A stretch of DNA of 64,000 nt from Arenicellales bacterium (GTDB taxonomy: Bacteria; Pseudomonadota; Gammaproteobacteria; Arenicellales; JAJDZL01): contig OZ244840.1 in the NCBI GenBank assembly GCA_965220725.1, positions 2,560,552 through 2,624,551 of the forward strand, read 5' to 3'. The translations under genes were made by a program, and so were the position numbers. This document shows positions 5,202 to 49,354 of this stretch, in pieces; the stretch's first letter is position 1; every line of letters starts with the position of its first letter. The notes under the pieces were generated by a model. That model had not been told where the DNA came from and ran no database searches. It saw only the letters and a program-made list of their open reading frames with translations.

Positions 5202-5230
5202 CGGTATTTTGAATTCTTGATTCTATGATG

Positions 5231-5264
5231 ATGCCGGTACGGATTCCATACCGGCATTCTTTTT
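5231..5264 (+). terminator. rho-independent terminator of paralog 1
   Basis: ATGCCGGTA / TACCGGCAT 9-bp stem followed by TTCTTTTT. Confidence 0.75.
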
Positions 5265-5839
5265 CCATTTCAGGTATCTAGACAGTCTGTGATCGCAAGA
5301 GAGCATCAGCTGCAACCTGCTGGTGTAGGGAACTGAATAGATGAGGTTATTGCATTAAGAAGAGATTTTTAGGAATTTCTTCCGTAGAAATCTATTAGCC
5401 AGCGCGTATTTGTCTTGTGCCGCCATCAAGATTCATTGGACTTCCGAGTTCGAAGCAGATTCGCCTTGCACAAAGCAGGTACGACGCAGTGGGAAGGTTG
5501 AACTTGTATTTGCGTTTCAATTGAGGGCGGTGCAAAAGTTTCAAAAATTTCTTTCTCAAGCGAGCATTCATTTCTTGTAAAATTACTTACTTATCAGAAA
5601 ATAAAAAGGTTGCATTCTCGGAATCGCCGAATTGACAGACGTCCGGCTTTGATATTTAGTCAGGCGTGGCAATCGGATCAATTCTTTCCGGGTATTTGGC
5701 AACAAAATTAACGTGAAGTACGGAAATGATCTGTGTGCTTGGTACAGTGTGCTGGCAATAACAGGCTGTGCCGTATGTTCAGATTTGAATTCAATTTTTC
5801 CGGCACAGGGACGCGCTCATTTTTTTTGAGGTTAAAGTT

Positions 5840-8749: not shown

Positions 8750-9326
8750 CCATTTCAGGAATGTAGACGATCTGCAATCACAAGTGAGCATCACCTGCAA
8801 ACTGCTGGTGTAATTAACTGAACCTATGAGGTTATTGCTTTAAGAAAAACACCATACAGATGTCTTTTGTTGAAATTTAGTAGCCAGCGCGTATTACTTT
8901 TGTGTCGCCATCGCAATTCATTGGACCTCTGAGTTCAAAACAGATTCACCTTGCACAAAGCAGGTGCGACGCAGTGGGAAGGTTGACCTTGTATTTGCGT
9001 TTCAATTGAGGGCGGTGCAGAAGTTACAAGATTTTTCTATCAAGCGAACATTCAAGTTTTTGTACAATTTTTGATTAATCAGAAAATCATGAAGTTGTAT
9101 TCTCGGAATCGCTGAATTGACTGACGTTCCGCTTTGAAAATTGGCAGGCGTGGTTAGTGGATCAATTCATTCCCCGGGTATTCGACATCAAAATAATCGT
9201 GAAGTACGGAAATGGCCTGTGTGTTTGGCGCAATGTGCTGAAAAATAAGAGGCAATGACGTATGCTCTGATTTGGATTCGATTTTTTCCGGCACAGGGAT
9301 GCGCCTTATTTTTGGAGGTTAAAGTT

Positions 9327-12239: not shown

Positions 12240-12273
12240 ATGCCGGTACGGATTCCGTACCGGCATTCTTTTT
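12240..12273 (+). terminator. rho-independent terminator of paralog 3
   Basis: Identical to the terminator at 8716-8749. Confidence 0.8.
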
Positions 12274-12847
12274 CCATTTCAGGAATGTAGACGATCTGCA
12301 ATCACAAGTGAGCATCACCTGCAAACTGCTGGTGTAATTAACTGAACCTATGAGGTTATTGCTTTAAGAAAAACACCATACAGATGTCTTTTGTTGAAAT
12401 TTAGTAGCCAGCGCGTATTACTTTTGTGTCGCCATCGCAATTCATTGGACCTCTGAGTTCAAAACAGATTCACCTTGCACAAAGCAGGTGCGACGCAGTG
12501 GGAAGGTTGACCTTGTATTTGCGTTTCAATTGAGGGCGGTGCAGAAGTTACAAGATTTTTCTATCAAGCGAACATTCAAGTTTTTGTACAATTTTTGATT
12601 AATCAGAAAATCATGAAGTTGTATTCTCGGAATCGCTGAATTGACTGACGTCCGGCTTTGAAAATTGGTCAGGCGAGGCGATTGGATCAGTTCCTTTCCG
12701 GGTATTTGACAACAATATAAACGTGAAATACGCAAATGCTCTGTGTGCTTGGTACAGAGTGCTGGCAAAAACAGGCTGTGACGTATGTTCAGATTTGGGA
12801 TCAATTTTCCGGCGCAGGGATGCGCTAATTTATTCGAGGTTAAAGTG

Positions 12848-22862: not shown

Positions 22863-24428
22863 ATGCGCAAGTTCAACACTGCAGGCCCCATCAAACCAAA
22901 GAAACACTATTTCATTCCTCCGTTGGAGCGTCTTGACCTTGAGTTTGTACTTGATCTGATAGATCAGATGAAGTTTTTTGTATTGCATGCGCCGCGTCAG
23001 ACAGGAAAAACCACAATCTTACGTGCGTTGCGTGATGAATTGAACCGCTCTGGACAATACCGTTGCGTATATTTTAATATTGAAGCAGGTCAAGCGGGCA
23101 GAGATGATATTCAAACAGCGATGAGAGCGATCTTGAGTCGATTAGCATTCGCCGCAGAAACTACCCTTGATGACTTTTTCATTGAGGACAATTATCAGAA
23201 ACTCTTAAAAAAATCCGGACCGCTTGAAGCACTGAGTCTAATCCTCAGCAGGTGGGCAAATAAGTCTGACAAGCCGTTGGTTTTGCTGATTGATGAAGTC
23301 GATGCCTTGGTGGGTGATACCCTGATTTCAGTACTTCGTCAATTACGCAGTGGTTATGCCGAACGTCCAGAATATTTTCCACAAACTGTAGTGCTGTGTG
23401 GTGTTCGGGATATCCGGGATTATCGAATTCATTCCCAATCAGAGAAGGAAATCATAACCGGTGGCAGTGCGTTTAATGTGAAGGCAGAGGTGCTGCGGTT
23501 GGGAGATTTCAGTTTTGAAGAGACTAGTTCACTGCTTGAGCAGCATACAAAGGAAACTGGACAGCATTGGTCTGAAGGAACAATTGAAGAAGTGTGGAGA
23601 CTGACCCAGGGTCAGCCTTGGTTGGTAAATGCATTGGCGTACCAAGTATGTGAAAGTGTAAGCGACGTTAACCAGCCGATTGAAATAAACGACATTGTAG
23701 AAGCAAGAGAAAAGCTGATTCTCCGCCGGGACACGCACTTGGATCAGTTGGCAGAAAAACTCAAGGAGCAGCGCGTCCGAAGCGTCATTGAACCACTGTT
23801 GACTGGTAATTTAGACTCGGTCAGGCATCCAAGCCATGATCTTGAGTATGTTCGAGATCTTGGTTTGATCAAACTTGATATGCCAATCCGTATCGCCAAT
23901 CCGATCTATCAGGAGGTCATTCCTCGAGAGTTGTCATGGGAAAGAGAACAGGAATTTCCGCAGAATACCGCTTGGTATATCGATGATGGCGTGATCAGGG
24001 TGGACAAGTTGCTGACGGACTTTCAGGAATTTTTCCAAATGCATTCCGAGCATTGGGTCGAGCGGTTTGAGTACAAGGAAGCCGGTCCGCAATTGCTGTT
24101 ACAGGCTTTCTTACAGCGCGTCGTCAATAGCGGCGGGCGGATCGAACGGGAATACGGAATGGGACATAGGAGGACGGACCTGCTGATCATTTGGCCAAGT
24201 GAGAACGGTACAACGAAAACAGTCATAGAATGCAAACTTATGCATGGCAGTTTGGAAGGCACCATCAAAAAGGGGCTTGAGCAGACTTACGCCTATATGG
24301 ACCGATGTAGTGCGGAGCAAGGTCATCTGGTTATCTTTGATCGATCTGAAGACAAGCTCTGGGGCGAAAAAATATTCTGTCGAAGTGAGACTGTCAATGG
24401 TGCTTCAATCACTGTTTGGGGAATGTGA
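22863..24428 (+). CDS. AAA-like ATPase with C-terminal PD-(D/E)XK nuclease-like domain
   Basis: The N-terminal FNTAGPIKPKKHYFIPP is typical of orphan AAA-like ATP-binding proteins. Walker A is PRQTGKTT and Walker B is LVLLIDEVD. The C-terminal ...RTDLLIIWP...KTVIECKL resembles a D...E-x-K nuclease core. Confidence 0.5.
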   Translation: MRKFNTAGPIKPKKHYFIPPLERLDLEFVLDLIDQMKFFVLHAPRQTGKTTILRALRDELNRSGQYRCVYFNIEAGQAGRDDIQTAMRAILSRLAFAAETTLDDFFIEDNYQKLLKKSGPLEALSLILSRWANKSDKPLVLLIDEVDALVGDTLISVLRQLRSGYAERPEYFPQTVVLCGVRDIRDYRIHSQSEKEIITGGSAFNVKAEVLRLGDFSFEETSSLLEQHTKETGQHWSEGTIEEVWRLTQGQPWLVNALAYQVCESVSDVNQPIEINDIVEAREKLILRRDTHLDQLAEKLKEQRVRSVIEPLLTGNLDSVRHPSHDLEYVRDLGLIKLDMPIRIANPIYQEVIPRELSWEREQEFPQNTAWYIDDGVIRVDKLLTDFQEFFQMHSEHWVERFEYKEAGPQLLLQAFLQRVVNSGGRIEREYGMGHRRTDLLIIWPSENGTTKTVIECKLMHGSLEGTIKKGLEQTYAYMDRCSAEQGHLVIFDRSEDKLWGEKIFCRSETVNGASITVWGM

Positions 24429-26621: not shown

Positions 26622-28886
26622 ATGGTTTCGGCGTGTCTGCGCTGTGCAAATATCCGTCTATCGTCGATTTCGCTTTCCAAACATCTTTTGGCTGTTGTGG
26701 GCTGCCTGTTTGTGGTGCTGACTGCCAACGCACAGGAGACCGACGACAATCTGGCTGCTGCAAGTGAATCAGAGGTGGTGGAAATCCTGACTATTTCAAT
26801 CTCGGACTCATCAACCGAAGCTCCTGAAGCAGCTTCCACTCCAATCTCGAATACGTCAACTGACGAACCCGAAGCGGCATCCAAACAAGTCTTGGATGCG
26901 CCAACCGAAGCGCCTGAAACGACATCCATTCCAGTCTCGGACGTATCAACCGAAGCCCCTGACACGGCGTCCACCCCTGTCTTGGACTCATCAACCGAAG
27001 CCCCCGAAACCGCATCCACTCCGGTTATGGACGCGTCAACTGAAGCCCCTGACACGGCGACCACCTCAATCTCGGACGCGTCAACTCGAGACCCCGACGC
27101 GGTGTCCGCTCCTGTTTTGGACGCAACAACCCAAGTTCCTGACTTGTCATCCATTCCAACCATTGAGCTGACGGTTGACACATTTGTCGAATTTCCGTCA
27201 CGCACCACACTCGAAGAAATCGAGTCTTTGGTTGAACTGGGAATGACGCAGCTCGCACACTCGATCCTGATTCAATCCCGACCCGATTACGAGTCCTCCG
27301 ATCAGCGTGCTGAGTGGGAAAGCCTGTTTTTCGCTGTTGCCAAAACGGAAGAGGACTGGACGGGTATAGTCGAACGCGCCGAAGCGCTGTCGGATTCCAG
27401 CAATATTGAGCTCTACGCGCATGCACAGACCCAGGCCGTTGAAGCCAGGCTCCAGATGGGAGAAGTTGAGCTGGCCAAGGCAACGCTGCGGCAGTTGATC
27501 TGGGAACTCCCCTACGACCAGGACCGCATGGTGCATTGGCGGGAGCTCATGGTCCAGTGCTATCTTGCCGAAAAGTCACTTGATCAGGCGCGCATCGCGA
27601 TGTCCGTCTACGATCAGGACTATCGTCCGGGCACACCGCAGTGGGAACATCGTTATGCCAGAACCCTGTTCAATACCGGTAATCTGCAACAGGCATACGG
27701 ACGCATCGCATCGCTGCAGACGACCGAAAGCAGACTGCTGGCGCTGTACGCGGATTACAGGTCGGAAGTTCTGACACCCTTGGAGGTGGTTCATACCGGA
27801 CTGGCCATGGTATCTGAACTGAGCAATCGTCCGCTGCTTGAGGTGGAAATGTGGGCCTTGATTGAATCGGCCGCCCGCAATATCAACGACCTGGAAATAC
27901 AGGTGACCGCAATCGAAAGCGCACTGTCACTTCAATTGGACTCCGAAGTCCTTGAAACCAGACACTGGGTGATCCCACCGAATACGCTGGAACAATTGCT
28001 GGCTGCCTATGACGATCTTGCGATTTCAGTCGGCAATGATTTCAATCTCGTGGTTGGAGATGACCCGAGCTGGTATGGACTGGCGCAGGAATTTGACATT
28101 ACCGCTCCGGTCGTTGCCCGGGCCATCTATGCCTTCCTGGCACGCCAGACATCGGATACCCAGGTGTATCAGGCCGGCGTCTACGGCCTGGCCGACAGTC
28201 TGAATGGGGCGAGACTGGACAGACTGATGGAGTCGTTGTTTGTCGATTCCGAGCAGTTTGAAATCACCACCACACCGACTGCAGTGCGCACGAAGCTTGC
28301 CAACCGTGCACTTCGCCGCAAGGACTTCAAGTCCGCGCTAAGCATCATGAACACCTTGGAAGAACCTGAAGAGGCTGATCGGTTGCTCTCCTGGCGACTG
28401 CGGCGCGCGCGCGTGGCGATTGCGGTCAAGGAGTACATCGCGGCGTTTCAGCTGATTTCCCAGATGATCGACGCGTTGCATCCGGAATCCGAACCGTCGT
28501 CGATCGACCGCATCATGCAGGTGGTTTTTGACCTGCAGGAGAATGGCGTTCACGAGTTTGCGGTCACACTGTTCGAGCAGCTATACCCTAAGACGGCTAA
28601 CGTCCAGACAAGACGGGAGATTCTTCGATGGGTGTCGGAGTCGCTCGCAGAGCAGGACCGGAACGTTGAGGCTTCTGAAATGCTGATCCGTTCAGCCCGG
28701 ATGGATGGCGGATGGGACGACAATTGGGGAAAATCGGCCCGCATGCAGGCCGCGGATGAACTGGCTGTTGCCGGCCTGTATGATGACGCCAGGGTGCTTT
28801 ACACCGAACTTCGCGAGAGTTCACTTGATCCAAGAAGCAAGGCACTGATTTCGAATCGGTTGAAACTCTTGCCGGACCCGCAGTAA
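26622..28886 (+). CDS. secreted repeat-containing, helical-repeat (TPR-like) protein of unknown function
   Basis: Signal peptide ...VVLTANAQE, then 8 x 15-aa acidic S/T/P-rich repeats, then ~550 aa that are alpha-helical-repeat-like. An ATG at 26622 with an AAGGGA RBS is preferred over the TTG at 26595. Confidence 0.6.
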   Translation: MVSACLRCANIRLSSISLSKHLLAVVGCLFVVLTANAQETDDNLAAASESEVVEILTISISDSSTEAPEAASTPISNTSTDEPEAASKQVLDAPTEAPETTSIPVSDVSTEAPDTASTPVLDSSTEAPETASTPVMDASTEAPDTATTSISDASTRDPDAVSAPVLDATTQVPDLSSIPTIELTVDTFVEFPSRTTLEEIESLVELGMTQLAHSILIQSRPDYESSDQRAEWESLFFAVAKTEEDWTGIVERAEALSDSSNIELYAHAQTQAVEARLQMGEVELAKATLRQLIWELPYDQDRMVHWRELMVQCYLAEKSLDQARIAMSVYDQDYRPGTPQWEHRYARTLFNTGNLQQAYGRIASLQTTESRLLALYADYRSEVLTPLEVVHTGLAMVSELSNRPLLEVEMWALIESAARNINDLEIQVTAIESALSLQLDSEVLETRHWVIPPNTLEQLLAAYDDLAISVGNDFNLVVGDDPSWYGLAQEFDITAPVVARAIYAFLARQTSDTQVYQAGVYGLADSLNGARLDRLMESLFVDSEQFEITTTPTAVRTKLANRALRRKDFKSALSIMNTLEEPEEADRLLSWRLRRARVAIAVKEYIAAFQLISQMIDALHPESEPSSIDRIMQVVFDLQENGVHEFAVTLFEQLYPKTANVQTRREILRWVSESLAEQDRNVEASEMLIRSARMDGGWDDNWGKSARMQAADELAVAGLYDDARVLYTELRESSLDPRSKALISNRLKLLPDPQ
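26802..27161 (+). repeat. 8 x 45-nt in-frame tandem repeat (consensus xDxSTEAPExASTPV)
   Basis: Read directly from the sequence. The units are SDSSTEAPEAASTPI, SNTSTDEPEAASKQV, LDAPTEAPETTSIPV, SDVSTEAPDTASTPV, LDSSTEAPETASTPV, MDASTEAPDTATTSI, SDASTRDPDAVSAPV and LDATTQVPDLSSIPT. Confidence 0.9.
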
Positions 28887-29810: not shown

Positions 29811-30682
29811 TTGAGCATGCGCGCCAGCAGATTACGGTATTTCGGGACCAGTTCGCTGTCGGGTCCGAGCATGTCGAACGCCTTGATCATCCCCTTTCGG
29901 CCGGCATCGTCACCAAAAGACCGATTCTGCCGGACGATCTCCAGCAGTGCATCCAGGGCGGTTTCAGCATGACCATGCACCAGGTTCAGCACCGCGAGTT
30001 GGTATCGGGCATCCCAATCCTCGGGATTTTCAGCGACTCGGTTTTCGAGCTCGCTTTCGGACGGGGCACTGCTGACAACATCAATGAATTCGAGCTGGGC
30101 GGCAACGGCCTTGTATTCGGGTTTGTTTTTCGATTCCTTGGCCTTTGCAAGCGTTTCCCTGGCGTTGTCCAGATCGTTTTGATGAAGGTAGAGTCCGGCC
30201 AGGCGGATGTTTGACTCATCCGTATTTTCTGATTCAAGTATTCTGATGGCTTCAGCAACGTTACCGTGGTTCAACAACAGGTCAACCGGGTCGTCTGACT
30301 GCGGTTCGGCAGCGGCTGTCACATGCTTTGACAGGAATTGCTCGATTGCGCTTTTCGGTTGTGCACCCATGAATCCATCGATGACCTCGCCATGCTTGAC
30401 GAGGTAGACTGTCGGAACACTGCGTATGCCAAATTGTCCTGCAAGCTCCTGGTTTTCATCAATGTTGATTTTCACAAGTTGGAGTGCATCACCGTACTCC
30501 TGTGCAATCTCTTCCAGCAAGGGTGTGAGCGTCTTGCACGGTCCGCACCAGGGTGCCCAGAAGTCCACCAGTACCGGTACTGTGTTGGACTTCTCCACCA
30601 CCTCGGCCATGAAGTTGCCGGCATTGGCGTCTACGACATTAGAAGTTTGAGATGAAGGATTTTCGCCACCAATTTGTAACAC
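29807..30682 (-). CDS. ybbN: thioredoxin-domain plus TPR co-chaperone (YbbN/CnoX family)
   Basis: FWAPWCGPCK thioredoxin motif followed by a TPR-like C-terminal half. GTG start preceded by AGAGGAAG. Confidence 0.8.
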   Translation of the reverse strand: MLQIGGENPSSQTSNVVDANAGNFMAEVVEKSNTVPVLVDFWAPWCGPCKTLTPLLEEIAQEYGDALQLVKINIDENQELAGQFGIRSVPTVYLVKHGEVIDGFMGAQPKSAIEQFLSKHVTAAAEPQSDDPVDLLLNHGNVAEAIRILESENTDESNIRLAGLYLHQNDLDNARETLAKAKESKNKPEYKAVAAQLEFIDVVSSAPSESELENRVAENPEDWDARYQLAVLNLVHGHAETALDALLEIVRQNRSFGDDAGRKGMIKAFDMLGPDSELVPKYRNLLARMLN

Positions 30683-30714
30683 TGGACTTCCTCTTGTTGA
30701 TGATGCAATTGGTT

Positions 30715-30789
30715 TGGCGCTCCCTAGGGGAATCGAACCCCTGTTCCCGGCTTGAGAGGCCGATGTCCTGACCGCTAGACGAAGGGAGC
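30715..30789 (-). tRNA. tRNA-Glu (anticodon CUC)
   Basis: The reverse complement reads GCTCCCTTCGTCTAGCGGTCAGGACATCGGCCTCTCAAGCCGGGAACAGGGGTTCGATTCCCCTAGGGAGCGCCA. It folds as a cloverleaf with a 7-bp acceptor stem, a TTCGATT T-loop, an encoded CCA and an anticodon loop CTCTCAA. It closely resembles E. coli tRNA-Glu. Confidence 0.9.
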
Positions 30790-30851
30790 AGCGCTTGAGT
30801 TCAAAATGGTATCACAAATCGTTCGGTGTATGTGAGTAGGGTGATGTTGGA

Positions 30852-32126
30852 ATGACAGAACCGCGGATAATTGAACAGTCGATTCATGGCATCACGCGTG
30901 ACCGCCTCAGTCGGAAGGCGGTCGAGGTGATTGAGGAATTGCATCGTGCCGGCTTTTCAGGAGAGCTGGTCGGCGGGTGCGTTCGCGACCTGCTGTGTGG
31001 CAAGCGGCCAAAGGACTTCGATGTCGCGACCAAGGCCACACCCGAACAGGTGCAGAACCTGTTCAAGCGAAGCTACATCATCGGTCGGCGCTTTCGCCTG
31101 GTTGAGGTTCTCCTCGGCTTTGAGGTGGTTCAGGTTGCCACCTATCGTGCAGAGCCTGGCAAGGCCCGACGTTACGGCAAATACAGGAACATCTCCACAA
31201 GAGGAAAAATCCTAAGGGACAATAACTATGGGGACATCGAGCAGGATGCCTTCAGAAGGGACCTGACCATCAATTCACTCTACCTGAATCCCGAAGACAT
31301 GAGCATCATCGACTACACAGGTGGATACGAGGACATGCAAAATGGGATCATCCGGGTGATTGGCAATCCATCTCAACGCTACAAGGAGGATCCGGTGCGT
31401 ATCTTGCGTGCGATTCGATTTGCTGCAATGCTGGGCTTTCAAATTGATGACTATTCGCTGAAACCAATTCGCACGGATTGCAGGTTCTTGAAGGATGTCC
31501 CGAACTCGCGGCTTGCAGACGAGATCAAGAAACTGTTTTTTGATGGGTTTGCGCTGTCGATTTTCGAACTGCTGCTGGAAAACGGGGTATTCACCGAACT
31601 GTTTCAGTGCTATTCGACACATCATGCCTTTACGATGGATGACGATGCGCGACGGTGGCTCTCCGCGATATTTGAGGAAGCCGACGATCGAGCCAGAACC
31701 GGCAAGCAGCTCAGTCTGTCGTACCTGCTGGCAACGGTCTTGTGGTTGCCGTACAAACGAGTGAGAGACAAGAGCAAGCGCCAGGCCAATCGCGGCGGGC
31801 CGATCCATCCAAGCCGACTCGCCACCGACCTGCTGAATCTGCAGAATCGAACCACGCGCATCAGCAAACCGCACTTCGACCGGGTCAAGGATATTTGGCA
31901 TATGCAAAGCCGAATGGAGTCAGCCCGGCCGGATGATGTGGTGAGAATCGCCGAAAACCGTAATTTCCGGGCGGCGTTTCGACTGCTGGCCCTGCGGGCG
32001 AGAAACGGTGAGGTGAGTCAGGAACTTTGCGACCGTTGGCGGGAAGTTCGAAATACCCGGCCGAAACCTAGGATCAGGAACAAGCGTTATGGAAAAAGAG
32101 GCCGACGGGCAGTCAGAATGCGATGA
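30852..32126 (+). CDS. pcnB: poly(A) polymerase I
   Basis: GGCVRDLLCGKRPKDFDVAT nucleotidyltransferase motif and a basic C-terminus. Conserved pcnB-folK pairing. Confidence 0.9.
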   Translation: MTEPRIIEQSIHGITRDRLSRKAVEVIEELHRAGFSGELVGGCVRDLLCGKRPKDFDVATKATPEQVQNLFKRSYIIGRRFRLVEVLLGFEVVQVATYRAEPGKARRYGKYRNISTRGKILRDNNYGDIEQDAFRRDLTINSLYLNPEDMSIIDYTGGYEDMQNGIIRVIGNPSQRYKEDPVRILRAIRFAAMLGFQIDDYSLKPIRTDCRFLKDVPNSRLADEIKKLFFDGFALSIFELLLENGVFTELFQCYSTHHAFTMDDDARRWLSAIFEEADDRARTGKQLSLSYLLATVLWLPYKRVRDKSKRQANRGGPIHPSRLATDLLNLQNRTTRISKPHFDRVKDIWHMQSRMESARPDDVVRIAENRNFRAAFRLLALRARNGEVSQELCDRWREVRNTRPKPRIRNKRYGKRGRRAVRMR

Positions 32127-37611: not shown

Positions 37612-38949
37612 TCATCCATGTGACAGTTCAATGTCACTTGAAATTCTTGCATGCCATTGGTTTGCCAATTTTACGCATTCTGCGTCATCGATGAATGTCA
37701 ATTTTCCGGAATCCAGTACACGACTGCCACCAATCCAGACATCGGTTACCTGATTGCGTGCCGCTGAATGCACGATTTGAGAAACAGGATTGTAGACAGG
37801 TCTGGATTCCAAGGCGCCAAGATCGATTGCTGTAATGTCGGCAAGTTTTCCCTTCTCAAGGCTTCCAAACAGGTGATCCATACCCAGGCTTTTGGCTCCG
37901 TTGATCGTAGACATTCGCAATGCCTGGTGAACCGATACATTGGCGGGGTTGCCTGAAACGCCTTTTGCGACCAGTGATGCGAAACGCATTTCCTCAAGCA
38001 TGTTCAGGCTGTTGTTGCTGGCGGCGCCGTCAGTACCGATTGAGACATTGACATTCATATTGAGTAAATCACTGACGGGGCAGATGCCACTGGATATCTT
38101 CAAGTTTGACTTCGGGCAGTGCACAACACTGCTTTTAGATTCGCTCAACAAGGCGATCTCATCGTCCAGAAGTTGCGTTGCGTGTACGGCAACAAGATTT
38201 CGATTCACCAGGCCGAGATTGTTCAGGCGTTGAAGTGGTCGGACTCCATATTGTTTCAATGAATCTGTGACTTCCTGTGCAGTCTCGTGTACGTGCATGT
38301 GTACACCCAGATCATGGTCCTCAGAGATTTTGAGAATACTTTCAAATGTCGGATCGAAAACAGTGTAGGGTGCATGTGGCGCAAGAATAGTCGAGACGAG
38401 TTCTGAATCGCCAAACTGCTGATGCAAGTCGAGTCCATTTTCCAGGTACTCTTGCGCGGACTGTGCCCATCTGGTGGGAAACTCGAGGACGATCATGCCG
38501 AGGCAAACGCGCATATTGACTGATTCGGCAACCTCGCCAACCTGTTCGGGAAAGAAATACATATCGTTGATACATGTTGTCCCACTCTTTATGGCTTCTG
38601 CGAAGGCCAGCATTGCGCCGTCCCGCACAAATTCTTGGTCCGCCCATTTTCCCTCAAGCGGCCAGATGTGTTCTTGAAGCCATGCTTCGAGCGGGACATC
38701 CTCCGCAATTCCCCGGAACAACGACATTGATGCATGGGCATGCGAATTTACGAATCCAGGCACAAGCGCGTGATGGTCGCTGAGTGTGACTCTCTGAGAA
38801 GCCTCATACTTTGAGTTCGCTTCGGAAGTAGGCAGGACTTGAAGAATTTTCCCGGATTCGACTACGATGCTGTGGTTATCGAGAATGTTGTTTGAATCAT
38901 CGACAGGAATGACCCATCGGGCGTTGATGATTGTGTCCGTATTTTTCAT
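37612..38949 (-). CDS. mtaD: amidohydrolase, 5-methylthioadenosine/S-adenosylhomocysteine deaminase-like
   Basis: 445 aa with the amidohydrolase metal motif NSHAHASMS and the TRZ/ATZ-MtaD-like length. Adjacent to ubiG, as I recall for Pseudomonas. Confidence 0.75.
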   Translation of the reverse strand: MKNTDTIINARWVIPVDDSNNILDNHSIVVESGKILQVLPTSEANSKYEASQRVTLSDHHALVPGFVNSHAHASMSLFRGIAEDVPLEAWLQEHIWPLEGKWADQEFVRDGAMLAFAEAIKSGTTCINDMYFFPEQVGEVAESVNMRVCLGMIVLEFPTRWAQSAQEYLENGLDLHQQFGDSELVSTILAPHAPYTVFDPTFESILKISEDHDLGVHMHVHETAQEVTDSLKQYGVRPLQRLNNLGLVNRNLVAVHATQLLDDEIALLSESKSSVVHCPKSNLKISSGICPVSDLLNMNVNVSIGTDGAASNNSLNMLEEMRFASLVAKGVSGNPANVSVHQALRMSTINGAKSLGMDHLFGSLEKGKLADITAIDLGALESRPVYNPVSQIVHSAARNQVTDVWIGGSRVLDSGKLTFIDDAECVKLANQWHARISSDIELSHG

Positions 38950-39095
38950 GTTGCGGAAGTATATCGCACGCGTAAAACACTGATATTGAATTTCAGACTC
39001 AGAGACGGTTAAACAGACTTGATCACCTTATATTGAGAGCGCCATCGGGTCATCTCTTTGGCAGCGGAGGTGACTCAGGTGCTCAAAAAGGAGTT

Positions 39096-39410
39096 TTATT
39101 TCGGATGATCCGAAAAAGGATTCGGGCGTTGGGATTCTCTGGACGGAAAATCATCAAGATTTACACCGCGGGGCATGTTTTCAACCAGCCATTGTCCCAA
39201 CGGTTGCCCCGTACTTCTGTGCTGTTCAATTGGCTGCCTCAAGGTTCGGTGCGTCTCCCATTCGCTTGCGGACATTACAATGAACTGACGTCTCTTTCCG
39301 ATCCGTTGTGGACCCTCTTTCTCGGCAAGTCGCAAAATTTCAGACAAACGCGCTTTGGCTTCCGCGACAGTCCAGATTCGGGGAGTGTGCTTTTCTGGAT
39401 AGCTGGTCAT
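39096..39410 (-). CDS. Phd/YefM-type (VapB-like) type II antitoxin, no cognate toxin present
   Basis: IWTVAEAKARLSEILRLAEKEGPQRI..FIVMSASEWE is the typical N-terminal antitoxin fold sequence. The 146 bp downstream, before mtaD, contain no PIN/toxin ORF. Confidence 0.7.
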   Translation of the reverse strand: MTSYPEKHTPRIWTVAEAKARLSEILRLAEKEGPQRIGKRRQFIVMSASEWETHRTLRQPIEQHRSTGQPLGQWLVENMPRGVNLDDFPSRESQRPNPFSDHPK

Positions 39411-39762
39411 ATTTTTCCAAGTTTTCTCGTTTTCATTGCTGTCGGCTATTTTACTGCGGATTGGATTGGTTTGAAATTATGCGGCGATTGCACGTTTACA
39501 CGGACCAAACACTTGTGAATCTATTTTGCTGATGTACAGATGACAGCGAATTGATGGGGCAGGTATTTGCATTGAATTCGCAGTGATGTTCGATGGCTAT
39601 TGATATTTCTAACTTTCGATTCTGGGCTGGATAACATGCTGTCAATGTGCATCTTGTCAATTTTGAACATGAGCCGACTGAATGCGAATTTGGGCCATAA
39701 TTCACAACCTGAAAAACGACAGAATTATTGCAATATCGTGTCAATTCGAGTAACATAAAGAG

Positions 39763-39815
39763 CAATAGAGCCGTCACGCCTCTTAACAATGCGCAACCTT
39801 GGCGGCTATTTTTTT
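39763..39815 (+). ncRNA. candidate ~50-nt structured RNA, module 1 (promoter-hairpin-U tract)
   Basis: TTGCAA (39728-39733), a 17-nt spacer, then TAACAT (39751-39756). The hairpin AGCCGTCA...TGGCGGCT spans 39769-39807 with an inner CGC/GCG helix, followed by A+T7 at 39808-39815. The predicted TSS is inferred, not observed. Confidence 0.35.
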
Positions 39816-39817
39816 GA

Positions 39818-39958
39818 ATGCCAGTGGCTGAAACTTTCAATGGAGTGGAGTTTGTCTGTGAACGGCAAATGCAAGATCTCGCGGACAGAGGGAAAATTGT
39901 TGATGACCCTGAAAAAAAGCGACACGAAATTATTGCAATATCGTGTCAATTCGAGTAA
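39818..39958 (+). CDS. 46-codon mini-ORF paralogous to the Abi N-terminus (copy 1); translation doubtful
   Basis: My translation is MPVAETFNGVEFVCERQMQDLADRGKIVDDPEKKRHEIIAISCQFE. About half of its first 33 residues are identical to the start of the Abi protein, MAETFNEIALSYEQQLQHLKNRGIIVDDDD. No Shine-Dalgarno sequence. Confidence 0.3.
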   Translation: MPVAETFNGVEFVCERQMQDLADRGKIVDDPEKKRHEIIAISCQFE

Positions 39959-39967
39959 CATAGAGAG

Positions 39968-40020
39968 TAATAGAGCCGTCACGCCTCTTAACAATGCGCA
40001 ACCTTGGCGGCTATTTTTTT
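39968..40020 (+). ncRNA. candidate structured RNA, module 2
   Basis: Same elements as module 1 shifted by +205 bp. The hairpin plus T tract at 39974-40020 is identical to module 1. Confidence 0.35.
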
Positions 40021-40022
40021 GA

Positions 40023-40163
40023 ATGCCAGTGGTTGAAACTTTCAATGGAATGGAGTTTGCTTGTGAACGGCAAATGCAAGATCTCAAGGACAGAGGGATA
40101 ATTGTTGATGACCCTGAAAAAAAGCGATACGAAATTATTGCAATCGCGTATCAATTCGAGTAA
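40023..40163 (+). CDS. 46-codon mini-ORF (copy 2); translation doubtful
   Basis: Translates to MPVVETFNGMEFACERQMQDLKDRGIIVDDPEKKRYEIIAIAYQFE, with the same frame and stop position as copy 1. No Shine-Dalgarno sequence. Confidence 0.3.
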   Translation: MPVVETFNGMEFACERQMQDLKDRGIIVDDPEKKRYEIIAIAYQFE

Positions 40164-40172
40164 CATAAAGAG

Positions 40173-40225
40173 CAATAGAGCCGTCACGCCTCTTAACAAT
40201 GCGCAACCTTGGCGGCTATTTTTTT
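40173..40225 (+). ncRNA. candidate structured RNA, module 3
   Basis: Same elements as module 1 shifted by +410 bp. The hairpin plus T tract at 40179-40225 is identical. Confidence 0.35.
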
Positions 40226-40227
40226 GA

Positions 40228-40368
40228 ATGCCAGTGGTTGAAACTTTCAATGGAATGGAGTTTGCCTGTGAACGGCAAATGCAAGATCTCAAGGACAGAG
40301 GGATAATTGTTGATGACCCTGAAAAAAAGCGATACGAAATTATTGCAATCGCGTATCAATTCGAGTAA
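40228..40368 (+). CDS. 46-codon mini-ORF (copy 3); translation doubtful
   Basis: Same peptide as copy 2, with one synonymous difference (GCT to GCC). Confidence 0.3.
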   Translation: MPVVETFNGMEFACERQMQDLKDRGIIVDDPEKKRYEIIAIAYQFE

Positions 40369-40377
40369 CATAAGAAG

Positions 40378-40430
40378 CAATAGAGCCGTCACGCCTCTTA
40401 ACAATGCGCAACCTTGGCGGCTATTTTTTT
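40378..40430 (+). ncRNA. candidate structured RNA / leader-attenuator, module 4 (immediately 5' of abi)
   Basis: TTGCAA at 40343-40348 and TAACAT at 40366-40371. The hairpin plus T7 at 40384-40430 is identical to the other modules and is followed by a GGAG RBS and the ATG at 40440. Confidence 0.35.
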
Positions 40431-40439
40431 GGAGTATCA

Positions 40440-41348
40440 ATGGCTGAAACCTTCAATGAAATAGCGCTTTCCTACGAACAGCAATTGCAGCATCTCAAGA
40501 ACAGAGGAATAATTGTTGATGATGATGATTCTGCATTGTGTAGTCTGAGAACTATCAGTTATTTCCGTATAAACGCCTATTTGTATCCCTTCCGCCACAA
40601 AGTGCAAAAGGATGCGCACTCCGAGCAGTTTATCCCAGGAACTAGACTTAGCGACGCGATTAATCTTCACGAGTTCGATCGTCTTTTGCGGTTAGCGGTT
40701 ATGGATGCTATAGAGCGTTTTGAAGTATGTGTACGAGCACTATTGGCATATAGAATCGCACATTCGTATGGAGTTTTCGGATACACGAATGCAGCGAATT
40801 TTTACCCGGACTTTGATCATTCGACTTGGCAAAGTAAACTGGAAAAAGAGATACATCGTCGGTCCAAAGAAGGCTTCATCGGCCGATTCAAGAATAAATA
40901 TACCGACTATCCCAAATTGCCAATTTGGATGGCGACGGAAGTAATGTCATTCGGTAGTTTATCCATCTGCTTCAATGGACTCAAAATCGACGATAAGCGA
41001 TCAATAGCTTCCAATTTTTCTCTCCCTTACAAGAGACTCCAAAGTTGGTTGCATTTGCTTGTATATATCCGCAATATCTGTTCACATCACGACCGGCTAT
41101 GGAACCGAAGTCTCTCAATTCGATCAATTGTGCCAAGAGATACAAATTGGAACCCACCAATTACACCTCGGAATGACAGGGTATTCTTCGTGCTTCTGGT
41201 TTTAAGGCATTTGCTTCAGTTTGTGCGCGGTGTCGATGACTGGAAGAACTGGTGTGATGAACTAATTTACTCTATATCCGAAGATAGCAAACTACTCAAA
41301 GCAATGGCGGTTCCAGAAAACTGGATTGAGCATCCCTTGTGGAAGTAA
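40440..41348 (+). CDS. Abi_2 family (AbiD/AbiF-like) abortive-infection protein, HEPN-type
   Basis: 302 aa. GGAG RBS 5 nt upstream of the ATG at 40440. The N-terminal ...QQLQHLKNRGIIVDD...ISYFRINAY and the motif YIRNICSHHDRLWNR (R-x4-H) are characteristic of Abi_2/HEPN. The track ORF start 40404 lies inside the hairpin module. Confidence 0.75.
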   Translation: MAETFNEIALSYEQQLQHLKNRGIIVDDDDSALCSLRTISYFRINAYLYPFRHKVQKDAHSEQFIPGTRLSDAINLHEFDRLLRLAVMDAIERFEVCVRALLAYRIAHSYGVFGYTNAANFYPDFDHSTWQSKLEKEIHRRSKEGFIGRFKNKYTDYPKLPIWMATEVMSFGSLSICFNGLKIDDKRSIASNFSLPYKRLQSWLHLLVYIRNICSHHDRLWNRSLSIRSIVPRDTNWNPPITPRNDRVFFVLLVLRHLLQFVRGVDDWKNWCDELIYSISEDSKLLKAMAVPENWIEHPLWK

Positions 41349-41539
41349 TTCAGAAGACAGTCTGGTTTAATGAGGTTGACTCTAAATGGTAAATTCTTGG
41401 ACTCTGAGGTATGAGTAAGACAAGTACGCGAACTGAAATGGAGGCTGTCGAAATGCAGGAAATGCCGATTGAGTCACGCACTCAGGTGCATTAGAATTGA
41501 TCAACTAAATCCACCTTACGATCTGAGGTTCAAGGGACA

Positions 41540-42147
41540 ATGAACGAAACACATACTACAGCAAATGAGAAAGCCTCCCGACCAGCCACCTATCAGGATG
41601 TGATTGACGCACCTATGAACATGGTAGCGGAAATCGTCGATGGTGAGCTACATACCCATACGAGACCCGCTCCGCCACATTTACTTGCCCAATCTGCGCT
41701 TGGGATGCTAATCGGGCATCCTATGATCTCGAAAGCGGTAAACCCGGCGGTTGGATGCTTCTTTACGAGCCCGAAATCCATCTGGGAGAGAATGTTGTGG
41801 TGCCGAACAATGCAGGATGGCGTCTCATTCGAATGCCTGCGCTTCCCGAAACACCGTTTTTCACACTGGCTCCAGACTGGGTCTGCGAGGTGCTATCGCC
41901 CGCAACGCGCGATCTTGACCTAGACGGCAAGCGGGCGGTTTATGCGCGGGCGGGTATTGACCACATGTGGTTGGTCGATCCGGAGGCGAAGTCGTTGGAG
42001 GCATTCGAGTTGCGCGATGGCAATTGGGTTTTGCTCGACTCAATATTCGATGATGTACCAGTTTCGTTGCCACCCTTTGAGGCGGTCAGTTTTAATCTCG
42101 GAGATTTGTGGAAAATTGCGCCACGGAATAACACACGAACAAGTTGA
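41540..42147 (+). pseudogene. Uma2/DUF820 family putative endonuclease, frameshifted
   Basis: ORFs 41540..41923 and 41755..42147 together align along the full length of the intact paralog at 42536..43192. The frame changes near 41712-41722, between ...LIGHP and YDLESGKPGGWMLLYEPEIHLGEN, consistent with one missing base. Confidence 0.7.
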
Positions 42148-42535
42148 CTGCTGAATATGAAGCGGACAGGCTGAACCTGTGCAGTTCAATGGTTTTCGGT
42201 CTTGCTAGTTCAAATCGAAGGTAATACGGCATTTCTGGCTTGGCACAGTCTTGGATTAGCCAGCCATATAGGCACAAATTAGTTAGTTTTGCTCCTTGAG
42301 AATTGAACGAATTGATCGCAGTCCAATATACCTGGACATCGCTCACCTGATGCTGAAACACAGAGCAGACGCTGATTTTGATCAATTGGGATTGAATTGG
42401 TTTTTAGTGCTGAATCTACTTGATCAGACTTGAGAAGCAGAGAATCCGTGGTGACGATTCAGATTGGCTTGCGATATACTCATGAAATAGCATCAAGGTA
42501 ATGACTAAACCTAATCGAAAGAGGGCCAAGGAGCG

Positions 42536-43192
42536 ATGTCCAAGAAACACATCTCAGAGGATGAAGCCTCATCTCGTCCTGAAATCAATCAAGATGTTAT
42601 TGATACGCCTTCCCACTTGGTGGCGGAATTAATTGACGGCAGGCTTTATACTCGCTCGAGACCTGCTTCCCGGCACGCCTTTGCTGAAACGGCACTTGCC
42701 AGCATTCTCAATCCGCCTTTACATTTCAGTCGTGGTGGCCCGGGCGGCTGGTGGATACTCTTTGAACCTGAACTCCAACTGGGTGAAAACATTTTGGTAC
42801 CGGATTTAGCAGGATGGCGGCGCCAGCGCATGTCTCAACTTCCAGATATTGATGAAACCTATATCGTTCCAGACTGGATTTGTGAGGTATTGTCGCCTTC
42901 CACACTAAGTTTTGATCTTGGCCGCAAGAGTGACATTTATGCAAGAGCGGGTGTCGATTACATGTGGTTGGTCGACCCAAACACATACTCGCTGGAAGCG
43001 TTCAAACTGCAAGGTTCAGACTGGGAATTGATTGACTCGCTATACGGCGATGTACCTGTTTCTTTACCTCCTTTTGAGGAAATCAGTTTCGACTTGGGTG
43101 ACTTGTGGTTGCGTACCGTTCATGAAGACTTGCCGGGCATGTTGTTCGCTGAACCTCAAATCGAGCAGATTGGAACATCAACGCAGATGTAG
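42536..43192 (+). CDS. Uma2/DUF820 family putative endonuclease
   Basis: The core PDWICEVLSPST...D..K...YARAGVDYMWLVDP is typical of the Uma2 PD-(D/E)XK-like family. 218 aa. Confidence 0.7.
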   Translation: MSKKHISEDEASSRPEINQDVIDTPSHLVAELIDGRLYTRSRPASRHAFAETALASILNPPLHFSRGGPGGWWILFEPELQLGENILVPDLAGWRRQRMSQLPDIDETYIVPDWICEVLSPSTLSFDLGRKSDIYARAGVDYMWLVDPNTYSLEAFKLQGSDWELIDSLYGDVPVSLPPFEEISFDLGDLWLRTVHEDLPGMLFAEPQIEQIGTSTQM

Positions 43193-43653
43193 TTTCTGAT
43201 TCTCAGGCGCACCTCTCCGTGTGTGATACCTGATTCAGTCTCACGAACAATCTCGCCACTGCCATTTGATCTATTTCAGACTTCTGGCTGAAATCTGACT
43301 CGGCAACTTTCGGTATCGAACCGGCATCTGGAACAATCACGGGCCGGTTAAATGGAACACCGCGTTCCACTATTGGACAGAATGGTTGATGTGTTCGTTT
43401 ACGCTCGCCAACTGTGTTCTTTTGAGTGTCCGCACAGTGTGAATGCGATCATCGTTGGAGACACCGACGATCACTCCAATTGAGTCGGAATCCAGGAAGT
43501 TCTGACACACCAAAAGCGCCCGTGAAGGTTTATTCTGCCGGGCGTTTGTGGTAAAATACGCCGAGAATTATGAACATCCCCACAGTTGATTTTCAAGCGC
43601 TATTTTCGGCGCTTGCTTTCCATTATTTCAAAGTAGATCAATAGGTTGCACAT

Positions 43654-46277: not shown

Positions 46278-47351
46278 ATGGACCTCAAATCCTTACGCAA
46301 GGAAATCGATGCGATCGATGTCGAGTTGCAGAACCTGATCACTCGACGGGCCGGAATCGGCAAGAAGGTTGCCGAAATCAAGAGCCAACAGGAAAATCCC
46401 CAGTACTTTGTGCCTGAAAGAGAGGCGCAGATACTCAACATGGTTGCGGAGAGAAACAAGGATGGCTTGCTCAGCGACAGGAGCATGGTACATATCTTCC
46501 GCGAGATCATCTCCGCCACGCGGGATTTGGAACAGCCCATTCGAATCGCCATTCTTGGGCCCGAGGGCACATTCACACAGGCCGCTGCCCATCGGCATTT
46601 CGGACACGCATTCGAGGCAGTCTATCGTGATACGATCAACGATGTCTTTGATGCGGTGGAATTCGACAAGGCTGCATACGGTGTGGTGCCAGTTGAAAAC
46701 TCCAATCAAGGCGTAGTCACCAGCACGCTTGACCGCCTGTCTGATTCCGAACTCAAGCTCTGCGGCGAGATTGAAGTCCAGGTGGAGCACGCGCTGATCA
46801 GTCAGGCTGATGAGATCACACAGATCGAGAAGATTCTGGCGCATCCGCAGGCTCTGGCGCAGTGTCAGAAATGGCTGAGCCGGAACTGCCCGAACGCCAA
46901 GCCCATCAAGGTCGAAAGTAATGCACAGGCCGTGCAGAAAATTCGTGATTCAAGGACTTCCGCTGCCATCGCGTCCGAAGCGGCTGCGAACATCTATGGT
47001 GTCAACGTGCTGAAAACCAACATCGAGGATCATGTGGGCAATACAACCCGGTTTCTGGTGATCGGGAAGATCGCGGTTGGCCCGACCGGACAGGACAAGA
47101 CCAGCATCTTGGTCTCAAAGAAGAACGAAATCGGCTCACTGGTCGAACTGCTTGAGCCGTTTGCACGACTGGGTGTCAACATGTCTAAAATCGAGTCGCG
47201 TCCAAGCCGGAAGACGTTGTGGGATTACGTGTTTTTCATTGACTTCGAGGGACACGAATCCGATGAGAATGTTCAGCAACTTTTCGTCGAGTTGCGTGAC
47301 AAGGCACCACTGTTCAAGTTGCTCGGTTCGTATCCCCGCTCCGCACGTTGA
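46278..47351 (+). CDS. pheA: bifunctional chorismate mutase / prephenate dehydratase (P-protein)
   Basis: N-terminal CM helix LRKEIDAIDVELQNLITRRA, a PDT domain, and a C-terminal ACT domain (ESRPS). Confidence 0.9.
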   Translation: MDLKSLRKEIDAIDVELQNLITRRAGIGKKVAEIKSQQENPQYFVPEREAQILNMVAERNKDGLLSDRSMVHIFREIISATRDLEQPIRIAILGPEGTFTQAAAHRHFGHAFEAVYRDTINDVFDAVEFDKAAYGVVPVENSNQGVVTSTLDRLSDSELKLCGEIEVQVEHALISQADEITQIEKILAHPQALAQCQKWLSRNCPNAKPIKVESNAQAVQKIRDSRTSAAIASEAAANIYGVNVLKTNIEDHVGNTTRFLVIGKIAVGPTGQDKTSILVSKKNEIGSLVELLEPFARLGVNMSKIESRPSRKTLWDYVFFIDFEGHESDENVQQLFVELRDKAPLFKLLGSYPRSAR

Positions 47352-48469: not shown

Positions 48470-49354
48470 GTGATGAACACCACTGAAATCAACAAGCTGC
48501 TGATTATCGGCGTCGGCTTGATCGGTGGGTCACTGGCATTGGCGCTGCGAAAGGCGGGAGTAGTCGGGGAAATCGTGGGCGCCGGACGACGCGTGGCGAA
48601 TCTCGATAAAGCCGTCGAACTGGGTGTCATCGACCGCTATACCCTGAATTTCGCAGATGAGGTCGATTCGTCAGACATGATTGTGGTGGCGACGCCTGTG
48701 TTGTCGATCGATTCAATTTTCGAAAAACTTGCAAGTTGCGATTACCGAAACGCCATCATCACCGATGTTGGCAGCGTGAAGGCACTGATCCTGCAAAGTG
48801 CCGAGCGGCATTTCGATCCTGATTATTCCGGCTTTGTACCGGCGCATCCGATTGCCGGCACCGAACACTCAGGCGTTGAGGCTGCATTCTCAGACCTTTT
48901 TGTCAACCGGCGAACCATCATCACACCAACCGATAGGGCAAACCCCAAGTCAGTGGAAAAAGTCAGAAACATGTGGCAGGCGACGGGTTCAACCATCCAT
49001 GAGATGTCCGTGAGTGACCACGATGAGATCTTGGCCGCCAGCAGTCATCTACCTCACCTGGCTGCTTTCGGACTAGTACACTACATTGCCAATCACGACC
49101 GCAACCAGGCATGCTTTGAGCTGGCGGCATCCGGATTCCATGACTTCACCCGCATTGCATCATCTGATCCCATCATGTGGCGCGACATCTGTGCCTCGAA
49201 TCGCGACTCGGTCATAAGGGAGCTGAATGGTTACATCGCTGAACTCCAGACCATTTCCCAGCGACTGTCCGACAACAACGTCGACAAGATTCAGATGACG
49301 TTCACTGATGCGAAGGCGGCCCGCGATCAATTCCTCTCCAGGTTCACGCGCTAG
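48470..49354 (+). CDS. tyrA: prephenate dehydrogenase
   Basis: Rossmann motif IIGVGLIGGSLALAL and the HPIAG motif. Start is either GTG at 48470 or ATG at 48473. Confidence 0.85.
   Translation: MMNTTEINKLLIIGVGLIGGSLALALRKAGVVGEIVGAGRRVANLDKAVELGVIDRYTLNFADEVDSSDMIVVATPVLSIDSIFEKLASCDYRNAIITDVGSVKALILQSAERHFDPDYSGFVPAHPIAGTEHSGVEAAFSDLFVNRRTIITPTDRANPKSVEKVRNMWQATGSTIHEMSVSDHDEILAASSHLPHLAAFGLVHYIANHDRNQACFELAASGFHDFTRIASSDPIMWRDICASNRDSVIRELNGYIAELQTISQRLSDNNVDKIQMTFTDAKAARDQFLSRFTR

Follow-up and report, generated by a model that had tools for sequence, protein, structure and literature searches.

In two papers, the abiF RNA is described as the antitoxin of a toxin-antitoxin (TA) system of type III, where it binds the dimer of a HEPN toxin and blocks its RNase activity (PMC12373285; PMC12737573). 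The Abi_2/abiF-RNA family was found experimentally to be toxic and to be neutralised by the RNA (PMC12373285). In the C. difficile prophage system AbiFCd-RCd22 a terminator between RNA and toxin sets the antitoxin:toxin ratio, and duplication of the RNA motif was proposed as a step towards larger arrays (PMC12373285). AbiF and its RNA, AbiFr, were recognised in 2025 as a type III TA system and an ancestor of Cas13. Here we describe a locus where the antitoxin cassette occurs in three to four seemingly autonomous copies. It lies between the divergent core genes mtaD and gyrA in a 64-kb stretch of contig OZ244840.1 from an Arenicellales bacterium (the window; positions are counted from its first nucleotide). 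The DNA around it, from ~39000 to 43540, is likely a small composite accessory islet, built in layers at a recombination hotspot.

An initial reading made from the letters alone (the sequence-only reading) had taken 38950-43653 for an AT-richer island of accessory, defence-type genes. Based on domain, RNA-family and structure searches, the span contains the following features (strand in brackets where one applies).

38950-38999 (minus): native mtaD promoter region with the -10 element TATACT at 38958-38963; not accessory
39096-39410 (minus): phd, Phd/YefM-family antitoxin gene, 104 aa (NCBIfam TIGR01552)
39411-39711: AT-rich divergent intergenic region between phd and the array, 40.9% GC, with a promoter-like site for phd at 39475-39448
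39712-40439 (plus): tandem array of 205-bp units; unit 1 at 39712-39916, unit 2 at 39917-40121, unit 3 at 40122-40326, unit 4 from 40327 onward
39770-39807, 39975-40012, 40180-40217 and 40385-40422 (plus): abiF RNA copies 1 to 4 (Rfam RF03085)
40440-41348 (plus): abiF, predicted HEPN RNase toxin gene of the Abi_2 family, 302 aa (Pfam Abi_2, PADLOC AbiD, PDB 8VZ6)
41540-42147 (plus): uma2a, frameshifted Uma2/DUF820 gene of PD-(D/E)XK type (Pfam Uma2, PF05685, 3.7e-16 on the C-terminal open reading frame, ORF)
42148-42535: non-coding spacer, 94.6% identity between strains
42536-43192 (plus): uma2b, intact Uma2/DUF820 gene, 218 aa (Pfam PF05685, 5.9e-22; PADLOC PDC-S03, 9.5e-17)
43193-43508: non-coding spacer, 93.7% identity between strains
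43509-43552: GC-rich hairpin (core CGCCCG/CGGGCG at 43517-43544) with an A-run and a T-run on either side
43545-43653 (plus): native gyrA promoter and 5' leader, alignable across Arenicellales genera; not accessory

The AbiF gene and its antitoxin-RNA array

The abiF product matched Pfam PF07751 (1.7e-51), PADLOC AbiD (1.2e-69) and the structure of PbAbiF (PDB 8VZ6, 1.5e-40). Its start was set at ATG 40440, because GGAG is found 5 nt upstream. The HEPN signature RNxxxH (R-x4-H) was kept, with RNICSH aligning to RNSCCH of PbAbiF (R210/H215, numbering from PMC12373285). By every sequence-level criterion the locus is a genuine AbiF/abiF-RNA family member. The repeat array and the Abi_2 gene had both been recognised in the sequence-only reading and were borne out, with four units of 205 bp and the Pfam Abi_2 match given above.

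The repeats were called by TRF at 39712-40522 (period 205, 4.0 copies, 93% matches). In each unit a -35 element TTGCAA (39728, then +205 each) and a -10 element TAACAT (39751, +205 each) are separated by a 17-nt spacer; 12 nt further on comes the abiF RNA, followed by a U7 tract and then by a relic of the abiF 5' end. Every RNA copy scored 40.2 bits with Rfam RF03085 (gathering score 37) and 50.5 bits with our own covariance model, and the last copy ends 17 nt before the abiF ATG. Five loci with AbiF homologues share this promoter register in their layout TTGAAT-17-TATAAT-12 nt-motif-U8, and this positional homology suggests that the unit promoters may be active.

Motif and U-tract were identical across all four units (47/47), and over the next 102 nt units 1-3 matched the real abiF gene at 71-75 positions (70-74%). 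In these relics the ribosome-binding site is lost (GGAG to GAAT) and the ATG is replaced by GTG, from which 44 codons are open with no Shine-Dalgarno sequence. Relative to the real gene they have 12-13 nonsynonymous and 4 synonymous codon changes, and the relic ORFs appear not to be under purifying selection. An identical 38-nt motif was found in L165, a locus whose AbiF protein is only 53% identical. As the motif is the same in all units and also in this locus, the AbiFr RNA must be strongly constrained, in contrast to the drifting coding relic that was duplicated with it. Unit 3 resembles unit 4 in the promoter and unit 2 in the relic. This mosaic similarity, together with the polymorphism of three versus four copies between strains described below, indicates that unequal exchange among units is probably ongoing.

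Two other kinds of array were considered and rejected. A CRISPR-like array was rejected on the segments between the motifs, which are 92-98% identical and derived from the promoter and 5' end of abiF itself. A ToxI-type array was rejected on the 205-bp period and on the promoter-like element and U-tract that each unit has of its own.

The islet could also be seen as a collection of selfish addiction or junk modules without defence function, with the array formed by neutral slippage and units 1-3 as non-functional relics. The orphan phd, the frameshift in uma2a, the decaying relic ORFs, the weak -10 (TAACAT) and the variation between three and four copies with no obvious consequence would fit such a scenario, and homogenisation by gene conversion could mimic conservation of the array. 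We consider this the most probable of the alternatives, but still unlikely. All units have retained an intact motif, U-tract and promoter while the neighbouring 102 nt drifted away from the gene by ~27%, the abiF ORF and its HEPN motif are intact with differences from the conspecific strain at only 2 of 909 positions, and the family is experimentally toxic and RNA-neutralised (PMC12373285).

Five loci with AbiF homologues (52-56% identity) and one viral locus (38%) each had just one motif, immediately upstream of the gene, and scanning viral contig proteins for AbiF gave one distant relative only. Among the matches listed, the motif core occurred once each in all of the at least 120 viral stretches with the motif. 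A covariance-model survey of 97 other abiF-motif loci (91 of those viral stretches and the six homologue loci) found none with two or more strong motifs on the same strand within 1 kb. Among the loci surveyed, arrays were present only in the window (four units) and in L168 and L169, two contigs of a conspecific strain (three units each). The multi-unit AbiFr array appears to be a new variant, unlike PbAbiF, the C. difficile system, ToxI-type arrays and CRISPR arrays.

The five homologues of 52-56% identity were found at unrelated sites, namely adjoining insertion sequence (IS) elements, among TA genes and inside a type I restriction-modification (R-M) operon; those in L162, L163 and L165 are IS-flanked. 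The GC content was 3-10 points below the surroundings in five of the six other loci, with no offset in L166. These sites and the AT shift are consistent with a mobile defence gene. L166 is also the locus where abiF and fic are located inside the type I R-M operon (hsdM-hsdS-...-abiF-fic-hsdR), and a second abiF-like motif (4971-5011; 30.3 bits, own model) is present there between the AbiF stop and the downstream Fic gene. In L162-L164, ~100 nt upstream of abiF, the terminal loop of the motif contains an extra hairpin of ~35 nt (AAACACAGCAATC...GCTGTTAATGCG). These copies were missed by the Rfam model and aligned over 75-76 nt by our own, and they look like a structural subtype of AbiFr.

Composition, content and variability of the islet

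The GC content of 38950-43653 was 45.7%, compared to 52.4% in the remaining window (mean of the whole 64 kb, 51.9%), which corresponds to z = -4.6 against all windows of the same size. The AT-richness claimed in the sequence-only reading was thus real, and the windowed analysis that it had proposed also found the span deviating, with the strongest tetranucleotide outlier of the 64 kb at 39251-41500 (2.25-kb windows). The GC dip was uneven. The lowest part was 39411-41539 (41-43%), abiF had 42.5% and the internal spacers 43-47%, followed by uma2b (48.6%), phd (50.8%) and uma2a (52.6%, genome-like). At third codon positions abiF had 44% GC (43.9%) versus 52-66% in the flank genes. The deviation is therefore mainly in the abiF module and the spacers, and the islet would consist of layers of unlike age and not of a single unit, with the AT-rich abiF module beside older, genome-like Uma2 genes. 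Since the outer ends are the native mtaD promoter and the gyrA promoter and leader, the accessory DNA proper shrinks to ~39000-43540, about 4.5 kb.

Domain searches found accessory-type genes only (Phd, the repeat array with Abi_2, and two Uma2 genes), in agreement with the content read from the letters. Phd scored 25.2 bits with TIGR01552 (cutoff 20.8) and 26.4 bits with Pfam PF02604, below the gathering score of 29.8, and was 52% identical to a plasmid Phd that is partnered with VapC (Acuticoccus plasmid NZ_CP133484). The 146 bp that separate the stop of phd from the start of mtaD contained no VapC toxin gene or remnant. The antitoxin is thereby shared with Phd/YefM-VapC type II TA systems, but no toxin gene or remnant follows it, and its description as an orphan held.

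Uma2a (reconstructed) and Uma2b are 51% identical to each other, which makes them old paralogues, and their structure matches were uncharacterised PD-(D/E)XK structures (PDB 9Y1L, 6OKH and 3OT2). A literature search on Uma2/DUF820 found no functional study. The break in uma2a is due to a single G missing from a G-run at ~41713, as judged from L168 and L169, where the gene is intact (202 aa); the frameshift is either a strain-specific change in the G-run or a sequencing error. Of the two Uma2 genes announced in the sequence-only reading, one of them broken, both were confirmed and the frameshift is present in the window, but the broken one has an unbroken counterpart in the conspecific strain. 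The label of a defence-type island applied in part. AbiF/AbiD is an established system from an experimentally validated defence/TA family, while in profile searches Uma2 matched only the PADLOC candidate PDC-S03, and Phd is an orphan. In the spacers, a 97-aa minus-strand ORF (42148-42535) and a 55-aa ORF (43193-43508) had no family match, and no remnants of a permease, TauD or other cargo of the relatives were detected.

The conspecific strain was found through P0080, a member of the AbiF cluster (313/314 identical; 99%), which led to contigs L168 and L169. Over 30199-51346 their identity to the window was 97-98%, and both had the same islet at the same place, with three 205-bp units where the window has four and with one extra G at 41713. 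Divergence between the strains was ~2.8% in the flanks and 2-2.6% in the Uma2 genes (the genome rate), and reached 5.4% in the spacer 42148-42535 and 6.3% in 43193-43540. The former spacer is presumably unconstrained, as it diverges faster than coding DNA. The region 38641-41975, however, had 15 mismatches versus 94 expected (Poisson P = 5e-24), non-coding parts included. This 3.3-kb tract ends inside mtaD and inside uma2a and not at the islet borders, which is a signature of homologous recombination and points to a recent import of the phd and abiF module between strains. A patch of the opposite kind was seen in pheA (46700-47199), with 67 mismatches per 500 bp to L168, ~4-5 times the local background; it suggests an import by recombination from a more distant lineage.

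The window was placed in Arenicellales (Gammaproteobacteria) by MtaD-based retrieval. The nearest species representatives had 68-69% identity in MtaD and 79% in GyrA. In a search of 5.8 billion proteins no relative was found between 71% and 100% MtaD identity, and a scan of metagenome contigs with MtaD gave nothing above 52%. The divergent adjacency of mtaD and gyrA is widespread in Gammaproteobacteria. The DNA between the two start codons (the gap) differed between relatives as follows.

Gap 243-360 bp: empty site in nine Arenicellales species (L005-L009, L013, L018, L020, L023)
Gap ~0.5-0.7 kb: no ORF of at least 70 aa (L029, L030)
Gap 1.3-1.4 kb: TauD gene (L011, L014-16, L019)
Gap 2.3-6.3 kb, closest clade: xanthine/uracil-permease gene, in some together with IS630-type transposase, pyridoxal-phosphate (PLP) decarboxylase or enolase-superfamily genes (L001-L004, L290-L294)
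Gap 2.4 kb: IS110 (L022)
Gap 2.4 kb: 493-aa ORF with no family match (L027)
Gap 3.7 kb: PIN and FitA TA pair, Uma2 gene, TauD (L051)
At least 10 kb upstream of mtaD, gyrA beyond: type I R-M genes, AAA_15/AAA_21 ATPases, Fic, Schlafen/AlbA_2 protein (L010, L026)
10 kb upstream of mtaD, gyrA beyond: mostly housekeeping-type genes, synteny probably broken (L012, L024, L025)
Contig end 3.2 kb upstream of mtaD: TauD, IS3, Uma2 fragment (L021)

The site is empty in some species and has unlike cargo in others, and is therefore a variable hotspot of turnover in Arenicellales, with a cargo in the window that is specific to its species. We know of no earlier description of this hotspot. In L010 and L026 (1-10000 of each) at least 10 kb of defence genes occupy the hotspot upstream of mtaD, and gyrA is not within 10 kb.

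An empty site, which the sequence-only reading had proposed to look for, was found in at least nine Arenicellales species. It had also named, as a sign against an acquired island, the same segment at the same place in all close relatives. This is literally the case for the conspecific strain, which carries the islet, and not for the next-closest relatives (71% MtaD identity), which do not. As the conspecific strain has the islet and these relatives lack it, the insertion goes back far enough to be shared across the species.

Differential loss would give a different history, in which the segment, or at least its Uma2 and Phd part, was ancestral in Arenicellales and was deleted or replaced in most lineages. 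Homologues 56-59% identical to Uma2a and Uma2b (56% for uma2b) are found at the same hotspot near mtaD in L051, a Uma2 fragment is located at the contig end of L021, uma2a has genome GC, and the strain-to-strain divergence of the Uma2 genes is that of the genome. These data would be expected under loss. However, the Uma2 orientation varies between lineages, at least nine species of several clades have the minimal intergenic region, each clade holds other cargo, and no permease or TauD remnants are left in the islet. Moreover, abiF is AT-rich and its homologues are at unrelated, IS-flanked sites. We judge this history to be improbable.

A further alternative is that the islet is what decay has left of a bigger mobile element, either integrative or an IS-bounded composite, with deletion of the mobility genes and with the fast-evolving spacers as their remains. 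At this site L003, L022 and L021 have transposases of the IS630, IS110 and IS3 families, AbiF homologues are flanked by IS elements in three loci, and ~1 kb of the islet is unconstrained spacer. On the other hand, domain searches of the islet ORFs tested gave neither a domain nor a remnant of a transposase or integrase, direct and inverted repeats around the whole islet and around the AT-rich module were no longer than chance, and a 79-bp Phd match was the only one that blastn found for the islet among plasmids and phages. A decayed element is given as little probability as differential loss. The longest flanking direct repeat was 10 bp, a length reached by ~16% of shuffles, and there is no nearby tRNA, the sole tRNA of the window (tRNA-Glu at 30715) being 8 kb off. 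The lack of integrase, transposase, tRNA and flanking direct repeats reported from the letters was thus confirmed by ORF domain searches, a tRNA scan and a shuffle test, and a classical integrative genomic island, for which an integrase or transposase, a tRNA or att site and flanking direct repeats were looked for and none found, was rejected. A 14-nt inverted near-copy of the mtaD promoter upstream of uma2b was put down to chance, with ~2 such pairs expected per 5.5 kb and several similar ones present. Spread without an integrase, by homologous recombination through the conserved flanks, would be a suitable route.

An assembly artefact, i.e. a chimeric join or a collapsed or expanded repeat in a metagenome-assembled genome, is suggested by the uncultured source and the differing repeat copy number, but its probability is negligible given that three independent assemblies (window, L168 and L169) from different samples agree in gene order and junctions, with 97-100% identity.

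Several points weigh against a layered islet with an active, recently moved AbiF module. AT-richness is a trait of the abiF family, so the acquisition is not dated by it. Other low-divergence patches between the strains, with values near zero, occur at 30200-31700 and 48700-49200, and the 3.3-kb tract may reflect nothing more than everyday recombination, with no link to selection for defence. An empty site in a truly close relative is lacking; in the nearest non-conspecifics (~71% MtaD, 79% GyrA) the permease gene is present instead, and for this reason the order and direction of events, whether insertion, replacement or differential loss, cannot be fixed exactly. With the sequence TTGCAA-17-TAACAT, the unit promoter agrees with the consensus at 8 of 12 positions and gave no call in a simple sigma-70 promoter scan. 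Uma2 and Phd are without a demonstrated defence role.

Flanking control DNA and other features of the window

The gene mtaD (minus strand) ends at 38949 and gyrA starts at 43654. In domain searches the left flank contained HAD/gph, a ubiG-type methyltransferase and amidohydrolase/mtaD, and the right flank gyrA, pheA (CM_2+PDT+ACT), hisC, tyrA, aroA, cmk, rpsA (six S1 domains) and ihfB. This agrees with the gene order gph-ubiG-mtaD and gyrA-pheA-hisC-tyrA-aroA-cmk-rpsA-ihfB given in the sequence-only reading as conserved in Pseudomonas-like gammaproteobacteria.

The mtaD -10 element is 8 nt from the ATG, and both the box and its spacing are kept in Arenicellales relatives. Further upstream no conservation was found among the relatives, so that the promoter region proper is ~40-50 bp; 38950-38999 is 100% identical in the conspecific strain. 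A -10 (TATACT/TATAAT) ~7-8 nt before the ATG, with no Shine-Dalgarno sequence, was seen in the window and in L005-L027 across Arenicellales. As the -10 is so close to the start codon, the position suggests that the mtaD mRNA is leaderless.

On the other side, an alignment of gyrA-proximal DNA from 16 genomes identified an extended -10 (TGgTAAAAT, 43549-43557) followed by ~100 nt of leader in which a hairpin is conserved (43594-43615; dG -11.8 kcal/mol, z = -2.8). A conserved GAATTATGA box was seen in the same control region (43549-43653), alignable across Arenicellales genera together with the extended -10 and the hairpin. The promoter and leader were identical to the conspecific strain at 113/113 positions, and the leader may be regulatory. 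The stretch 43193-43653 had been described as 460 bp of non-coding accessory DNA. It is mostly that, but its last ~110 bp are the conserved gyrA promoter and leader.

The GC-rich hairpin at 43509-43552 overlaps the gyrA -35 region. It is stable (dG -22 kcal/mol, z = -2.8, extended fold) and occurs once in the window, so that a REP-like repeated element was rejected. It was not conserved in other genera in the gyrA-proximal alignment. The hairpin noticed in the letters is thus present, and a role as a bidirectional terminator, as proposed there, or as an insulator is plausible but unproven; a terminator scan gave no call at this position.

Elsewhere in the window, four tandem paralogous genes of ~3.5 kb (2286-5201, 5840-8686, 9385-12210 and 12785-15718; 940-977 aa) have nucleotide identities of mostly 75-95% in blocks of 300 nt. 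A scan of one copy, 5840-8686, found fn3, He_PIG Ig and autotransporter beta domains, and the AT-rich spacers between the paralogues are the other low-GC spots of the window (~1750, 5000-5500, 8750-9000 and 12250-12500). The second most deviant composition was found at 22863-24428 (plus strand), a patch of 44-46% GC with a gene for a 521-aa AAA_35/AAA_22/NPHP3_N (STAND-like) ATPase, which may be another accessory or defence gene. At 26793-27152 there is a 45-bp tandem repeat with at least six copies at 66-73% identity, and its translation is weakly extensin-like (proline-rich).

The islet compared with known systems

In the layered reading that we prefer, the older layer would be the pair of diverged, nuclease-like Uma2 genes, perhaps together with the orphan phd, as residents or debris of the hotspot. 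These genes are near the genome GC. The two Uma2 genes also diverge between strains at the rate of the genome, and Uma2 homologues are found at the site in two other lineages. The younger layer would be the AT-rich AbiF module, a type III TA or abortive-infection system whose HEPN RNase is predicted, by homology to PbAbiF/AbiFr and C. difficile AbiF/RCd22, to be bound and neutralised by the AbiFr encoded in cis. The promoter, the AbiFr hairpin, the U-tract and the first ~28-44 abiF codons have been multiplied to four tandem copies (three in the conspecific strain). Every unit may fire its own AbiFr of ~50 nt, ending at the hairpin and U-tract, and the abiF mRNA would arise by read-through of the last hairpin and U-tract, mostly from the proximal promoter, or through several of them if transcription starts further upstream. 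In this way the array would be expected to increase the ratio of antitoxin to toxin some three- to four-fold. Once transcription is halted or the labile RNA is degraded, in a phage infection or under stress, AbiF would be set free to cut RNA, and the infection would be aborted. The islet as such may move between strains by homologous recombination via its conserved flanks, and would then be a case of integrase-free spread.

It is conceivable, but doubtful, that the array of three to four units is a selected dosage device for the RNA antitoxin, with a copy number that varies between conspecifics, and a natural case of the motif-duplication step proposed to lead from AbiF TA systems to Cas13 CRISPR arrays. 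If so, array copy number could tune the firing threshold of an abortive-infection response, and a functional amplification would offer a simple model for antitoxin dosage tuning and for the origin of repeat arrays beside HEPN effectors. The islet also adds a core-gene hotspot with turnover of TA, R-M and accessory genes in Arenicellales, which are largely uncultured marine bacteria.

Work on defence islands (Makarova et al. 2011) has been followed by hotspot surveys in E. coli and Pseudomonas. With such islands and core-gene hotspots the islet shares variable cargo between core genes, a site that is empty in relatives, and a deviant composition. TA and R-M genes are likewise found at the mtaD/gyrA site in other species. 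It differs in being very small (4.5 kb), with one recognised defence system and no integrase, tRNA or att site. With AbiF as the sole established system, the present data do not justify naming it a multi-system defence island. All in all it fits the ordinary pattern of small defence or TA islets at core-gene hotspots.

With ToxIN/AbiQ-type systems the locus has in common tandem direct repeats that encode an RNA antitoxin immediately upstream of the toxin gene. However, ToxI repeats are 34-50 nt, abutting, co-transcribed and cut by the toxin (PMC12373285), whereas the units of the window are 205 bp and appear self-contained, and the toxin families are unrelated (ToxN in ToxIN, HEPN in the window).

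The closest counterparts are AbiF systems. PbAbiF/AbiFr of Prevotellaceae (PDB 8VZ6; Zilberzwige-Tal et al. 2025, as presented in PMC12737573) has the same components, i.e. an Abi_2 HEPN protein with RNxxxH and an abiF-motif RNA directly upstream in cis on the same strand. It has one non-coding RNA, whereas the window has four predicted, complete promoter-RNA-terminator cassettes with a 205-bp period. C. difficile AbiFCd-RCd22 also has more than one abiF motif before the toxin gene (PMC12373285). There, two motifs 19 nt apart are part of a single transcript, while those of the window are 167 nt apart, each with its own putative promoter and U-tract. The duplicated unit of the window further includes the 5' end of the toxin ORF and is located at a chromosomal hotspot, whereas RCd22 is found in a prophage.

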